Shown in pieces: positions 10,519 through 39,110 of a stretch of DNA of 64,000 nt. Position 1 is the first letter of the stretch; the number at the start of each line of letters is the position of its first letter. The notes under the pieces are model-generated. The model saw only the letters and a list, made by a program, of their open reading frames with translations, did not search any database and was not told the origin of the DNA. Source of the DNA: a virus (Duplodnaviria; Heunggongvirae; Uroviricota; Caudoviricetes); IMG/VR virus record IMGVR_UViG_3300031344_000001. One strand, given 5' to 3'. The position numbers and the translations under genes were made by a program.

Positions 10519-11136
10519 ATGACCGAAGTCCAGATCCTCAACCCCCTCGACGACGACGAGCGCGAGGGCGCGAGTGAGCGCGAGCGCGGGAAACGCGGGA
10601 AGCGTGGGCACCGAGGTCACCACGGGCCGACCGGCCCGACGGGCGGTACCGGAGCCACCGGACCGACAGGTGGTACCGGAGCCACCGGCCCAACGGGTGC
10701 CACCGGCCCGACGGGCGCCACCGGTGTTCCAGGTCCCACTGGAGCGACAGGTCCCACCGGCGCGACAGGTCCCACCGGCGCGACAGGTCCCACCGGCGCG
10801 ACAGGTCCCACTGCCGCGACCGGCCCGACAGGGTCGGCCGGCGTCGCACGGATCATCGCGGCGGCAGCGGTCAACTCGAACGGCACCTTTCCCGGGGACA
10901 GCCCCGGTTTCTCCGCGGTCACCCCCACGGCGACCGGCGTGTACACGCTCACGCTGACGAACTTCCCGACCAACGACAACAACCTCGTCGTCAACGTCAC
11001 GATGGTCGGCTTGATCGGTGGACAGGTCAGCTGGATCGGCGGCACCCCTCCGAACATCGTCGTCCACACCTTCGACGCGACAGGCACCCCAGCCAATCGC
11101 ATCTTCTCGATCACCTGCTTCGACACGACGCCCTGA
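10519..11136 (+). CDS. collagen-like fibre protein with C-terminal beta domain
   Basis: [13 protein letters not shown] followed by GPT/GAT repeats; globular C-terminus. Confidence 0.85.
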
Positions 11137-11146
11137 TCGGACCCTC

Positions 11147-11380
11147 CTAAGGGGAAACGGCCTGCGTGCTCAGGTCGACGATCAAACCCCGATCGATCGC
11201 GGCTTTCACGAACGCTTCGCAGCGATCGTGCAGCGTCGTTTGCGCCACGTACGCCGAGTCAAGACCGAACCTCTCGGCAATTCGCCTCATCACGCCGTCC
11301 ACGTCACCACGCTGGCCCTCAACGCTGTGGTCCCCGTGGCAATGGTAGTGTAGGCAGTCGAGCGCCGTGCTCCCCCGCAT
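11147..11380 (-). CDS. hypothetical protein
   Basis: short ORF downstream of radA. Confidence 0.35.
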
Positions 11381-11409
11381 GACGCAGTCGTCTCCGGCCC
11401 AGCGCAGCC

Positions 11410-36479: not shown

Positions 36480-36482
36480 AAG

Positions 36483-38045
36483 TCAGCCCCTCGCGGCGCG
36501 CGGGAGCCGCGGCGCGCTCGAAGGCTCCGTGAACGTCCCGGCGGACGGCTCCGCCAGGCGCGAGCCCGACGGCGTGCGCGATCGGGACGACGGCGACCGG
36601 CCCTTGGGCTTCACACCCACGTAGAGGAGCGTCCCTCCCACGGCGGCACCGAGGACGATCAGCGCGATCTTCCCAGCAGAGAACCCCGACGATGGCGGCG
36701 GCGACGACATTCCCTCCGTCGGAGGGGCTGAACCACCGTCGGCCGAGATCGAATCAGGCGACGGTCCACACCCCTGCGGTCCCGACGAACTGTCCGACGG
36801 GTCCGCCGACGGATCCGGTCCCGGGTCCGATGTTCCTGACGTCGGTGGCGCCCCACCGGGCTGCGCCCCACCGGGCTGCGCCCTCGGCAGCGGCCCTTCG
36901 CCACGCTGGTGAGGATGGTGGTGGTGGTGGTGCCTCTGGGACCCTTGCTGAGGTCCCGGCGGGCGTGCCACGCCGAACGGCGACGACCTCGGACCCACGC
37001 TCGGCGACGAAGGCCCCCACATCGGAGGCATCGGCGCGCTGGAGGGCATGGCCCAAAGAGGCATCCCTGGCGGCATTCCCGACGGCATCGGCGGCATGCC
37101 CGGCGGCATGCCCGGCGGCATGCCCGGCGGCAGCCCCGGGTGCATGCCCGGGTGCATGGAAGACGGCGCGACTTGCGGAGGTGGCGCCGGGCGTAGTGGC
37201 ACCGGAGGGCTCACCGGGTGCGTGGGGTACGAGGGATGTGGGGGCGCCGAAGGACCCGCCGTCGCCTGCGGAGGGTGCGGAGGGGACGGCGGCATGCGCG
37301 GCGGCTCGACCAGTGGAGCTGGCGGCGGCGGAGCGTCCTCGGGCACCGGAGCGGTGGCGTCCGCCGCGCTCTGTACCTGGTGGAAGATCGCCAGCCAGAC
37401 CTTCGCCATCTCCGCGTCCTGGGGGATGGTCATGTCGAGCTTCTGACCCGGCTTGTAGTGCGTGGTCGCCCAGAAGCGCTCGTTGGTCTCCTTGTAAAGA
37501 GCCGCGAGCGCCTCCTTCTGCGCCTGGTCCTGCGCGTGAACGTCGTGCGCGTGCCTGTGCGCGCGTTTGTGGACATGCTCGTGCGCGATGTGCTCGTGCG
37601 CGGGGGCCTGCGGCGGCGGCGGATTCTTCGCGACCTCCTTCGAGGCGTCCTTCACCAGCGTGGGCGAGACCGTCGGCGGCTGCTTGCTCGCCGCGTCGCG
37701 CGCCTTCTGCGTGGAGATCTGCTGCGCGGTCGTCGCTGCCGCGATGTGGACCTGCGACGTCGCGGCGTCCGGCGCGGAGGCCGCGACGTCGGCGTGCACC
37801 CCTGCCGCACTGTTCGCCACCGCGGCGTCCGAGAGGTGCTGCGCGACCTCGGGGTGATCGAACGTCGTGACGAGCTTGCCCCCCTCCGCCTCGCTCTTCA
37901 CCTTGCGGAAGATGTCCTGCCAGACCGGCTCCATCGCCTTGTCCGTCGGGATGCGGGGGTCGAGCTTCTGGCCCGGCTTGTAGGCCGTTTGCGCCCAGAA
38001 CCGAGCGTCGGTCTCCTTGTTCAGAGTGTCAGTGCTGATCGCCAT
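36483..38045 (-). CDS. Pro-rich C-terminally anchored membrane protein
   Basis: two copies of [17 protein letters not shown]-terminal TM and basic tail. Confidence 0.78.
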
Positions 38046-38132
38046 GAGGTCTCCACGTGGCAGGAACGCGCGTCCAAAAACACCGCGCCCAGGGCGGAGG
38101 GCTAGATCCTAACACGGCGACGATCGATCTGA

Positions 38133-39110
38133 TCAAACGCGCCGCGAGCGGAGCGCGTCCCCCACGACGTCTTCGAGGGAGCGCCGCGGGCGCCAGTCGA
38201 TCTTCTCGGCAGCGCGTCCCGCGGCGGCCACGAGCACGGCTGGATCGCCCGCGCGCCGGGGACCCACCGCGTGCGGGACGCGGCAGCCCGTGACGTCCGC
38301 GACCGCAGCGAGCACCTCACGCACCGTCGAGCCCCGCTCAGATCCGAGATTCAACTCTCCGACGACCTCACCACGCTCGAGCGCGGCGATCGCCGCGAGG
38401 TGGGCGTCCGCGAGGTCCTCCACGTGGACGTAGTCGCGCACGCACGTGCCGTCACGCGTCGGGTAGTCGTCGCCATGGACGACGAGCGGCGGACGGCGGC
38501 CGATCGCGGCGTCGATCGCCAGCGGCACGAGGTGCGTCTCCGGGTCGTGGCGCTCGCGCAAGGAACCGTCCGGGTGCGCGCCGGCCGCGTTGAAGTAACG
38601 AAGTGCCGCCCAACGGACCCCGCGGGCGTGCCCGTACGCGGCAAGCACGACCTCGGCCGCGAGCTTGCTCGCCCCGTAGGGACTGATCGGTCGCCGCGGG
38701 GAGTCCTCGACGATCGGGGATCGTCCTGGCTGCCCATACACCGCCGCGCTCGACGACAGGACGAAGGCGAGTGGACGGCTCGTCGCCGATGTCGCGGCGT
38801 CGAGGAGCGCCGTCGTCTTCGCGAGGTTCTGCTCGAAGTAGAGCGCCGGATCACGGACCGACTCGTCGACGCGGATCCGCCCCGCGAAGTGGACGACCGT
38901 CCCAACGTCCCGCGTGTCCACGAGCCGTCCGACGAGTTGCGCGTTGCTAACATCGCCCACGAAGCGTTCGATCGCGTCTGGAAGCCGTGGCCACGTCGGC
39001 GACGTCGAGAGGTCGTCGATCGCAACGACGCGGTGCCCCGCCGCGTGGGCAGCACGCGCGAAGTGCGACCCGACGAAGCCCGCGGCACCCGTGACGAGGA
39101 TCGTCGTCAA
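38133..39110 (-). CDS. galE: UDP-glucose 4-epimerase
   Basis: GAAGFVG, HFAG, SSSAAVYG, PYGASK, LRYFNAAGA, TCVRDYVHV. Confidence 0.92.
   Translation of the reverse strand: MTTILVTGAAGFVGSHFARAAHAAGHRVVAIDDLSTSPTWPRLPDAIERFVGDVSNAQLVGRLVDTRDVGTVVHFAGRIRVDESVRDPALYFEQNLAKTTALLDAATSATSRPLAFVLSSSAAVYGQPGRSPIVEDSPRRPISPYGASKLAAEVVLAAYGHARGVRWAALRYFNAAGAHPDGSLRERHDPETHLVPLAIDAAIGRRPPLVVHGDDYPTRDGTCVRDYVHVEDLADAHLAAIAALERGEVVGELNLGSERGSTVREVLAAVADVTGCRVPHAVGPRRAGDPAVLVAAAGRAAEKIDWRPRRSLEDVVGDALRSRRV

Follow-up and report, generated by a model that had tools for sequence, protein, structure and literature searches.

A candidate virus-encoded glycosylation module around BclA-type collagen-like fiber genes in a large uncultivated member of the Caudoviricetes

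We analyzed a 64,000-nt stretch of DNA, referred to here as the window, which was taken from the record IMGVR_UViG_3300031344_000001 (Caudoviricetes) and belongs to an uncultivated virus known from its sequence alone. The window was found to contain three genes for collagen-like fiber proteins (colA, colB and colC) and one for a glycine-rich protein (glyD), which sit among genes for glycosyltransferases, sugar-converting enzymes and methyltransferases (Table 1). On balance, we lean towards the view that this virus makes trimeric collagen fibers of the BclA type and glycosylates them with its own soluble enzymes. The genes themselves, their folds or families, their conserved linkage and the predicted solubility of their products were established computationally.

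The three collagen-like proteins differed markedly in their Gly-X-Y repeats. The colA protein revealed a single uninterrupted run of 25 triplets with threonine at 20 of the 25 Y positions, and colB contained 71 triplets dispersed over five runs, 51 of them with threonine at Y. The colC protein had 14 triplets, of which three carried threonine at Y. A first-pass annotation of this DNA had listed three GPT/GAT collagen genes and one glycine-rich gene; the three collagens and glyD are indeed present, but only colA and colB are rich in threonine, and glyD is not a collagen. As judged from the G+C content at third codon positions and from stop counts, the reading frames of colB, colC and glyD were unambiguous; the antisense frame of colA was equally open, and its strand was assigned because both of its non-repeat ends are homologous to colB (E 1e-24 and 5e-18). 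The colB open reading frame (ORF) as listed runs to a TTG at 16831, and the MAMILNP at 16792 is its probable start. The colC gene had earlier been placed at 25756-26877; the gene was correctly recognized, but its true extent is 25756-26373, since all 24 aligned homologues begin at the MADIK-type methionine, and the remainder is an open upstream extension overlapping the neighboring glycosyltransferase gene at 26426-27373.

The fiber proteins fall into two pairs according to their N-termini. We found that colA and colB both carry an I-L-N-P peptide, open their collagen stretch with GKRGHRGH and have paralogous heads of ~95 aa, and that colC and glyD have in common an M[AS]DIK N-terminus. Both shared N-termini had been noticed before; they proved to be real and to recur in relatives. 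The collagens of relatives showed a first class of N-termini, M-x-x-(I/V)-(Q)-I-(L/I)-N-(P/S), which occurs with heads of the colA/colB type in the window, L025 and L034 (L-numbers denote loci, G-numbers genomes), and a second class, M[AST]D[IMVF]xK(R)(G/I)PDC-acidic, which stands ahead of at least three different heads. In both classes, Cys clusters and a GERG(K/R)RGHRGH(D)G start come after these peptides, a sequence pattern that appears to be that of a common anchor with exchangeable heads. The locus L030 encodes one protein of ~820 aa in which a long glyD-like Gly-rich stretch is joined to a colC-type head behind it. It is pure speculation that the acidic/His tail of glyD, (GDR)3(GDH)3, could pair by charge with the basic starts of colA and colB in a mixed triple helix. 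The colA head had no relatives in the protein collection, and the colB head had none in the PDB or IMG/VR. The colA, colB and glyD proteins were not present in the protein collection as exact sequences, and gene callers probably read these three genes differently.

An AlphaFold model of colC, built on the 25-sequence alignment, showed a predicted local distance difference test score (pLDDT) above 90 over residues 50-205. A Foldseek search of the PDB revealed the head of F-BclA (9h38) to be the top match of the colC head, with an E value of 1.2e-9 and a template modeling (TM) score on the target of 0.81-0.84. The next matches were EDA-A1, BclA (1wck, 2z5w, 2r6q and 3tyj; E 3.8e-7 to 7.8e-7), ExsFA/BxpB and C1q domains. 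Although the head of colC was only 15-19% identical in sequence to the heads of BclA and F-BclA, the model indicates that it folds as a C1q/TNF-like jelly roll of the BclA/F-BclA type. When residues 30-205 were modeled in three copies, the trimer scored 0.93 against 0.00 for the best of three controls, with at least 96% of contacts shared between runs and a partner pLDDT of at least 90. Of the proteins solved as same-chain pairs, 20 of 30 reached the mark used for this score, as did one of 23 solved as single chains; these counts hold only roughly for colC, for which its own alignment and three copies were used. The pass of the colC trimer may reflect likeness to the solved BclA and F-BclA trimers and not constitute independent evidence.

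The lead transferase is a 998-aa fusion of an HtrL_YibB domain, a glycosyltransferase family 2 (GT2) domain with tetratricopeptide repeats (TPR) and a C-terminal GH130-like propeller. Its GT2-TPR module matched phrog_13126 (E 5e-24), and the Pfam family TPR_2 was detected at residues 508-531 (E 2.1e-5). Residues ~312-531 matched solved glycosyltransferases with E values of 2e-4 to 7e-4, the best being GmaR (22ao, E 2.1e-4) and the peptide S-glycosyltransferase SunS (7msp, E 3.6e-4). The name GmaR is taken from the title of the PDB entry; GmaR is the O-GlcNAc transferase of Listeria flagellin. Judged by its sequence, the GT2-TPR part appears to have the build of SgtA, GmaR and SunS, all of which act directly on proteins or peptides as glycosyltransferases. 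It also keeps the nucleotide-binding DTGSTDGT block and the HE block.

Residues 670-998 of this enzyme matched no Pfam family, and neither of the two GH130-like domains in the window was matched by PF04041 at E up to 5. Upon searching 1.84 billion representative sequences, we found 2621 matches to these residues at E up to 0.001, including 215 at E up to 1e-30. The homologues typically form the C-terminus of GT2-TPR proteins of ~650-700 aa or stand alone as proteins of ~300 aa. In 20 homologues that were scanned, the partner domains were HtrL, GT2, TPR, FkbM, Methyltransf_24, GT25, sulfotransferase and TOD1, and Glyco_hydro_130 (PF04041) gave three weak matches, one of them above the cut-off. 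The model of residues 670-998 had a pLDDT of 91, and at least the top 20 Foldseek matches were GH130 enzymes (E 3.6e-9 to 1e-6). These included beta-1,2-mannobiose phosphorylases and the mannoside synthase Uhgb_MS, with the Leishmania GDP-mannose transferase MPT-2 ranking lower (E 9e-6). A Gly-x-Glu-Asp-x-Arg block was invariant in the alignment of the family. The C-terminal domain is thus predicted to have the GH130/GT108 fold; it resembles these enzymes in its five-bladed propeller and differs from them in that PF04041 is unmatched, with TM scores of 0.5-0.63 and identities of 8-14%.

A scan of metagenomes with the colC alignment yielded 12 loci, with which the proteins of the window were then compared. 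The pairing of collagen and enzyme genes was kept in four of the six colC-relative loci of at least 12 kb, at 43-80% identity and with the gene order rearranged. In L024, 17 kb hold, at 58-80% identity, the GH130-like protein, both Methyltransf_24 proteins, the RmlB-like protein, the second GT2, a colC-type collagen, glyD, the fusion of Methyltransf_24 with HtrL (MT24-HtrL), the small methyltransferase and the 2-oxoglutarate (2OG) oxygenase. The order in L025 is GT2-TPR-GH130, 2OG oxygenase, colC, 127-aa protein and cupin; in L033 it is cupin, colC, 127-aa protein, 2OG oxygenase, a 1181-aa HtrL-GT2-TPR-GH130 protein, a methyltransferase and MT24-HtrL. L028 carries GT2-TPR-GH130, the 2OG oxygenase and two collagens, together with GT25 and GT2 genes, and L029 and L030, both longer than 12 kb, had no enzyme of the window's types. 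We additionally observed in L028 (12862-14469 and 16853-18004, both minus strand) and L029 (3162-4178, plus strand) a eukaryote-type Ser/Thr protein kinase (PF00069, E 8e-50), a RuvB homologue and a sigma-70 region 4 protein.

A second, independent seed, MT24-HtrL, retrieved 30 loci from IMG/VR. The five closest of them (57-59% identity, G+C content 0.58-0.69, contigs of 77-131 kb) all carry a GT2-TPR-GH130 gene, and in all five a collagen gene stands beside it, as found by the run scan in L117-L120 and by Pfam in L116. In L117, L118 and L119 the collagen gene lies on the same strand as the enzyme gene and begins 140-430 bp downstream of it; L118 also has a gene for an RmlB-like protein (67% identity) and one that is S53-like. 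As a control, the same scan for Gly-X-Y runs was applied to 80 bacterial GalE loci, which together span 512 kb and of which 44 have a G+C content of at least 0.58, and none contained a collagen run. The co-occurrence of collagen and glycosyltransferase genes in relatives, which had been proposed as a check, is borne out by both sets of loci. Threonine was the dominant residue at Y in the linked collagens over a G+C range of 0.42-0.69: it occupied 70% of Y positions in the window, 84% in L116-L120, 78% in L021, 65% in L139 and L142, 58% in L002 (G+C 0.44) and 0% in L007.

None of the fibers or enzymes among the 64 called proteins screened had a signal peptide or a membrane segment; the one hydrophobic stretch that was flagged, in a 441-aa enzyme, is its Rossmann strand. 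In addition, a Pfam scan of the window revealed no initiating phosphoglycosyl transferase acting on a lipid carrier, no flippase, no polymerase and no exporter. Glycosylation of proteins in the cytoplasm is therefore favored over remodeling of the host surface, which the first-pass annotation had put forward as an alternative and which we now disfavor. The fibers would follow a common plan: a short docking peptide at the N-terminus is succeeded by a start rich in Cys and in His/Arg, then by a Gly-X-Thr stalk, and the protein ends in a small globular head. We infer both the chemical steps and the location of the fibers on the virion, which may be as follows. Soluble enzymes would act on soluble fiber proteins in the cytoplasm of the infected cell, where the GT2-TPR module of the 998-aa enzyme may set the first sugar on stalk threonines, by analogy with SgtA acting on BclA3. 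The glycan could then be extended by the HtrL-like, GH130-like, second GT2 and TOD1-like domains, possibly with beta-mannose. The 4,6-dehydratase, GalE and the cupin of phosphomannose-isomerase (PMI) type would draw on host precursors to supply 6-deoxyhexose, galactose and perhaps mannose, and the five methyltransferase domains would cap the sugars by O-methylation. The sedolisin may trim the fibers, and the finished trimers would be mounted on the particle via their shared N-terminal peptides.

Two readings had to be given up. The kit had been called self-contained, but neither a sugar nucleotidyltransferase nor RmlC or RmlD turned up in the window. The other reading is a rhamnose glycan; the dehydratase scores below its family cut-off, and the two GH130-like domains and the PMI-type cupin point at least equally to mannose.

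We compared the module with known systems. One of these is SgtA of Clostridioides difficile, a 358-aa protein consisting of a GT-A domain and four TPRs, which is encoded directly upstream of bclA3 and in vitro transfers beta-O-GlcNAc onto threonine of the BclA3 GPT repeats (PMC7157674). As in the window, a GT-A domain is followed by TPRs and the gene lies near that of a collagen-like GPT/GXT protein. In contrast to SgtA, the module of the window is part of a 998-aa HtrL/GH130-like fusion and its DxD motif reads NGD. The setting of SgtA and BclA3 is a spore and that of the window a virus, and BclA3 is reported with C-terminal membrane helices, whereas the fibers of the window have small globular heads.

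BclA and F-BclA of the Bacillus cereus group share with the window an N-terminal docking peptide, a GXT stalk and, as in colC, a trimeric C1q/TNF-like head (PMC12357932). The BclA stalk is densely O-glycosylated with GalNAc-Rha3-anthrose, the terminal sugar of which is 2-O-methylated (PMC10050317; PMC6222408). F-BclA docks via an N-terminal hydrophobic-hydrophobic-x-Pro hook (PMC12357932), which the I-L-N-P peptide of colA and colB resembles, although this is a likeness between short motifs only. The exosporium leader, the ExsF/BxpB partner, the rmlACBD operon and the anthrose operon of the BclA systems were all absent from the window. The N-termini in the window are ILNP or M[AS]DIK peptides, no spore or exosporium genes are present, and the context is virus-like.

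Viruses that modify their own proteins were also considered. In mycobacteriophages of clusters O, F and C, phage glycosyltransferases and an O-methyltransferase modify the structural proteins of the phage in the cytoplasm (PMC11600133, PMC12619734); modification is reported there for the C-termini of the capsid and tail-tube subunits and not for collagen stalks, and the gene sets are far smaller. An HtrL/YibB gene lies near glycosyltransferase genes in an F1 mycobacteriophage (PMC10453261). In Mimivirus, the collagen-like protein L71 is modified by L230 through lysine hydroxylation and glucosylation of hydroxylysine, and the virus, like that of the window, combines collagen-like proteins and modifying enzymes and builds methylated rare sugars of its fibrils with its own enzymes (PMC9614988). 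Unlike Mimivirus, the window has no PLOD-type enzyme, its sole oxygenase being the 183-aa PF13759 protein, and its tRNA anticodons are of the prokaryotic G34 type. A hydroxylysine route like that of L230 was accordingly rejected, as no PLOD-type fusion of a 2OG hydroxylase and a glycosyltransferase is present in the window. We found no description in the literature of phage collagen-like fibers glycosylated by phage enzymes, nor of a GH130-like domain in a phage-fiber setting, in a search that left subscription journals mostly outside. Glycosylation by a virus of its own structural proteins is known; what is probably new here is the combination of BclA-type collagen fibers with an HtrL-GT2-TPR-GH130 enzyme.

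Several observations weigh against glycosylation of the fibers by these enzymes. The collagen runs found in six of the twelve 20-kb pieces of G001 and G003 show that the genomes of relatives are rich in collagen, and the adjacency of collagen and enzyme genes is for that reason not as improbable as the bacterial control implies; the relatives are, moreover, not independent samples. Among the other 25 MT24-HtrL loci (43-52% identity, mostly of low G+C content), collagen runs occurred in only two, L139 and L142, and loci with the GT2-TPR module had such runs in only six of 23 cases. The L007/L008 pair showed no threonine at Y, and colC, the fiber with the BclA-like head, has few threonines. The matches of the GT2-TPR module to solved protein glycosyltransferases are marginal (E ~2e-4), and the DxD position reads MPNGD in the window and seven close homologues, compared with DADM, DSDD or DADD in remoter homologues and DAD in SunS. 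The 2OG gene is absent from G001 and G003 and so is no obligate partner of GXT collagens. Finally, family scans with Pfam and PHROG recognized no capsid, portal, terminase or tail gene in the window.

The most serious alternative, which we nevertheless regard as rather unlikely, is that the enzymes are real but act on a target other than the collagens, either on virion proteins such as capsid and tail tube or on a free or host-surface polysaccharide, and that the adjacency merely follows from collagen-rich genomes. Besides the collagen content of G001 and G003, it draws on the lack of a collagen run within the examined flanks of 25 of the 30 MT24-HtrL loci and 17 of the 23 GT2-TPR loci, on the known phage case, in which capsid and tail tube and not fibers are modified (PMC11600133, PMC12619734), and on HtrL, GT25 and FkbM domains being typical of loci for lipopolysaccharide or lipooligosaccharide (PMC4172580). 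Against this alternative stand the predicted solubility of all the enzymes, the lack in the window of the lipid-carrier and export genes named above, and a GT2-TPR build shared with direct protein or peptide glycosyltransferases (PMC7157674). The close, same-strand spacing of enzyme and collagen genes in L117, L118 and L119 and the presence of threonine at 47-84% of Y positions in all but one set of linked collagens argue in addition for the collagens as the target.

It is considerably less probable that the sequence is cellular, from a bacterial chromosome, megaplasmid or other element with collagen-like surface proteins glycosylated by the cell. In its favor, neither the window nor five related records showed a recognizable capsid, portal or terminase; genes for RuvB, a Ser/Thr kinase, a sigma-70 region 4 protein and a DDE transposase occur in relatives; and contigs reach 461 kb. 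Specifically, HK97 capsid and Terminase_6C matched none of the five related virus records; the capsid of nucleocytoplasmic large DNA viruses also matched none, in a search whose control matched no genome and whose result is therefore empty. Against a cellular origin stand the array of 29 tRNA genes in 6 kb, two free-standing HNH genes and a LAGLIDADG intein, and the unfamiliarity of the gene content: 44 of the 64 likely proteins called in the window matched no Pfam family (E up to 0.01), 45 of the 64 had no PHROG match at E up to 0.001, and several families were known to PHROG only. Relatives of colC were absent from a set of one genome each of 185,579 species, and the module is shared with relatives recorded as viruses in IMG/VR. 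In one of these records, direct terminal repeats, replication genes of phage type and a match to a baseplate hub were seen. On the tRNA array, homing endonucleases, intein, orphan genes and absence from species genomes, the element looks viral and not host-chromosomal, a host-chromosomal cluster being the case that the first-pass annotation had named as refuting its view.

That part of the cluster (the 2OG oxygenase, its small neighbor, methyltransferases and glycosyltransferases) hypermodifies viral DNA, like the systems of 5-methylpyrimidine dioxygenase, ParB and glycosyltransferase, is very improbable: phage T-dioxygenases do pair with a small partner resembling ParB and are found alongside glycosyltransferases and O-methyltransferases (PMC13229309), and the 2OG gene stands back to back with a conserved 127-aa gene bearing a DGNHR motif, but the 183-aa oxygenase belongs to PF13759 and matched no TET/JBP family (PF12851) at E up to 5, the methyltransferases are of sugar or small-molecule types (Methyltransf_24/CmcI, FkbM) and not DNA methyltransferases, and the deoxysugar and epimerase genes and the GH130-like and HtrL domains fit the building of a glycan. 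No Pfam domain was found in the 127-aa protein or in those 120 of its 170 homologue clusters that were listed (54-78% identity), and PF02195 was unmatched at E up to 5; the ParB label was rejected on these grounds. The DGNHR motif is one that we had presumed to be ParB-like.

The remaining enzymes of the module were compared with their families and with relatives (Table 1). GalE, the cupin, HtrL in two copies, the GT2-TPR protein and the 2OG oxygenase of the earlier enzyme list were borne out, but RmlB falls below its cut-off, and the second GT2 (E 2.7e-4) and DUF616 (E 0.029) are weak. TIGR01181 is the best-scoring family of the dehydratase, which by sequence appears to be a 4,6-dehydratase-like short-chain dehydrogenase/reductase (SDR). 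Five methyltransferase domains are present, as had been reported, and a motif-I glycine loop is visible in each of them; two of the five resemble CmcI or rhamnosyl-O-methyltransferases. The cupin was 84-85% identical in L025, L033 and L034. The 2OG gene adjoins a collagen gene in L025, L028 and L033 and accompanies the collagens in L024. Sequence searches of the PDB gave no match for the 2OG oxygenase, the cupin or MT24-HtrL.

The peptidase gene at 27411-28772 had been labeled a subtilase, which its product is not in the strict sense. We found it instead to encode a kumamolisin-like sedolisin, which aligned with kumamolysin (1gt9) over residues 26-348 at E 6.8e-60 with the GEVxLD, SISWG, GD..S.DG and GGTSAVAPL blocks aligned, and the label subtilase/mycosin was rejected on the same match. 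The residue numbering of its Ser-Glu-Asp triad is an assumption of ours. Kumamolisin-As is a collagen-cleaving enzyme. The class of protease in the module differs among relatives, with a papain-type C1 peptidase in L024 (3942-4715, plus strand; PF00112, E 3e-45) and an S53 sedolisin in the window, G001 and G003, which looks like a non-orthologous replacement. In G003, the S53-like gene adjoins the RmlB-like gene.

Table 1. Positions of the fiber genes, enzymes and other features in the 64,000-nt window.
Feature	Positions	Strand	Remarks
tRNA array	1089-6983	-	29 genes in ~6 kb, including 3 tRNA-Thr, 3 tRNA-Pro, 2 tRNA-Gly, 1 tRNA-Ala and tRNA-Ile(UAU)
colA, collagen-like fiber protein	10519-11136	+	205 aa; N-terminal ILNP peptide; C-terminal head of ~95 aa; Pfam Collagen E 2.4e-12
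RadA/Sms-like ATPase	11410-13467	-	TIGR00416 E 7e-54; N-terminal zinc ribbon; split by a Hint/LAGLIDADG intein
Cupin, type II phosphomannose-isomerase C-terminal kind	15348-15701	-	117 aa; PF01050 E 2.2e-6; phrog_7851 E 1e-21
colB, collagen-like fiber protein	15749-16792	-	347 aa from MAMILNP; Cys-rich N-terminus; Pfam Collagen E 3.6e-27
Conserved 127-aa protein	16898-17281	+	core gene of the clade; travels with collagen and 2OG genes
2OG-Fe(II) oxygenase	17307-17858	-	183 aa; PF13759 (2OG-FeII_Oxy_5)
HtrL-GT2-TPR-GH130 fusion	17904-20900	-	998 aa; HtrL_YibB at residues 40-273; GT2 with TPR at ~312-660; GH130-like five-bladed propeller at 670-998
Class I S-adenosylmethionine-dependent methyltransferase	20913-21656	-	phrog_21658 E 6.5e-15; 130-nt overlap with the end of the upstream gene
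Methyltransf_24 and HtrL_YibB fusion (MT24-HtrL)	21527-23101	-	524 aa; homologues 43-59% identical in 30 IMG/VR loci
HNH_3 homing endonuclease, free-standing	23188-23781	-	between the MT24-HtrL and RmlB-like genes; 34-nt overlap with the end of the RmlB-like gene
RmlB-like nucleoside-diphosphate-hexose 4,6-dehydratase (SDR)	23748-24797	-	TIGR01181 235.1 bits, cut-off 365.1; 67-72% identical in L024 and G003
FkbM-family methyltransferase	25044-25742	-	TIGR01444 77 bits, cut-off 37.7
colC, BclA-type protein	25756-26373	-	205 aa; MADIKK start; 25-sequence alignment
Second, divergent GT2-like glycosyltransferase	26426-27373	-	weak, E 2.7e-4, below cut-off; 70% identical in L024
Kumamolisin-like sedolisin (peptidase S53)	27411-28772	-	no prodomain; two C-terminal repeats of ~40 aa
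TOD1_MUCI70 (formerly DUF616) N-domain, weak, with Methyltransf_24/CmcI-like methyltransferase	28851-30176	-	TOD1 E 0.029, below cut-off; 80% identical in L024
Methyltransf_24/rhamnosyl-O-methyltransferase-like protein	30193-30888	-	
glyD, Gly-rich protein	31101-32153	+	350 aa; 28% Gly; MSDIK N-terminus; ends (GDR)3(GDH)3; no Pfam family
Stand-alone GH130-like protein	32264-33670	-	468 aa; low-complexity insert; paralogue of the 998-aa C-domain, E 5e-14; 59% identical in L024
Orphan genes with a hydrophobic segment	33622-34446, 36483-38045, 40316-41104, 41101-41556, 41553-42284, 44807-45046, 49589-49861, 50419-51954	-	
UDP-glucose 4-epimerase GalE	38133-39110	-	TIGR01179 335.1 bits, cut-off 262.3 (above)

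The genomic context of the module is that of a densely coded element, with tight gene packing, a predominance of the minus strand and a G+C content of 62-71%. Nine contigs recorded the colC protein of the window, the longest of 461,400 bp, and no relatives of colC were found in IMG/VR. The window is a member of a sizeable clade of very large elements, because the 127-aa gene has 170 homologue clusters on contigs of up to 501,972 bp. It is likely, in our estimation, to be part of a huge phage genome with a bacterial host of high G+C content. The closest genome matches of its GalE were metagenome-assembled genomes of Polyangia and Myxococcales (52-55% identity), which is too weak for naming a host. 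G001 and G003, which were read whole, had little in common with the window beyond the module. Megablast of positions 10000-34000 against 50,697 phage records gave no match, and a 985-aa protein of the window had none in the same records (tblastn), in IMG/VR or in the ESM Atlas. A 300-aa protein reached scores of only 0.85 in the ESM Atlas, which provide no evidence, and a lenient PHROG scan of 30 unknown proteins of the window yielded nothing usable.

Four-codon boxes in the tRNA array are read by G34 or U34 anticodons, including Pro-GGG, Thr-GGT, Val-GAC and Ile-GAT, and this G34-type set is what we take to be a prokaryotic, not a eukaryotic, pattern. Within the array, an HNH endonuclease ORF (3170-3901) overlaps the call for tRNA-Pro(GGG) at 3784-3856. 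Many phages have inteins related to that of the RadA/Sms-like ATPase in their helicase and terminase genes, and the intein of L117 lies inside a radical-SAM/B12 enzyme. Shine-Dalgarno-like motifs preceded only 22 of 49 starts and were uninformative, and scans for promoters and terminators did not rise above shuffled sequences. A TAGAACGG box ahead of colC and the sedolisin gene was rejected, as it showed no enrichment (37 matches against 30 expected). A (GCN)n run at 51182-51280, which reads as (GAA)11 in one frame of the ORF 50419-51954, was picked up by the Gly-X-Y scan and is not collagen.

Downstream of the module lies a minus-strand block of orphan genes (33622-52000), many of which encode a single hydrophobic segment. 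This block is unusual in a tailed phage and might indicate a particle that contains a membrane or a remodeling of the host membrane. Several proteins with internal repeats were also observed. A 364-aa protein without a family (34452-35546, minus strand) contains four copies of a LPMVQVKMTGNGPQ-type repeat, and a 520-aa protein (36483-38045, minus strand) has a domain of ~40 aa in duplicate, a long (PGMP)n stretch rich in Pro and Met, a His7 run and, at its C-terminus, a membrane anchor. A 204-aa protein (14256-14870, minus strand), which is 43% identical in L025, has an internal duplication of ~60 aa (RQKLKLSAIAYVNARHG.DAD...LLAQ.SLEY.EALM). At 8984-9517 (minus strand), a dual-specificity phosphatase-like protein was detected (PF00782 E 4e-7, below the cut-off; phrog_10650 E 8e-11), the copy of which in G003 (42% identical) adjoins a collagen fiber gene and a glycosyltransferase gene.

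A more far-reaching interpretation, which we put forward tentatively and regard as possible rather than probable, is that a clade of very large bacterial viruses (~200-500 kb) wears an exosporium-like nap. Interchangeable BclA-type fibers would be mounted on two N-terminal peptides, the I-L-N-P hook and MSDIK with its Cys cluster, and stapled through the His/Arg-rich collagen start. The HtrL-GT2-TPR-GH130 enzyme would O-glycosylate their threonines, with the propeller serving as a synthetic beta-mannosyltransferase, and up to five methyltransferases would cap the glycans. If such a nap exists, it would be the first virus-encoded counterpart of SgtA and BclA and would put the GH130 fold to a new biosynthetic use.

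If the virus does glycosylate its fibers as proposed here, bacterial viruses would make glycosylated collagen-like surface fibers with their own enzymes, a trait documented so far for spores (BclA and BclA3). The documented viral cases differ, with Mimivirus modifying its collagen by other chemistry and mycobacteriophages modifying capsid and tail tube. A function would then be suggested for a widespread multi-domain family of 2621 cluster representatives without a Pfam model, for the HtrL/YibB domains and for a biosynthetic GH130-like domain. Such fibers would also have a bearing on how large phages bind their hosts or evade recognition.

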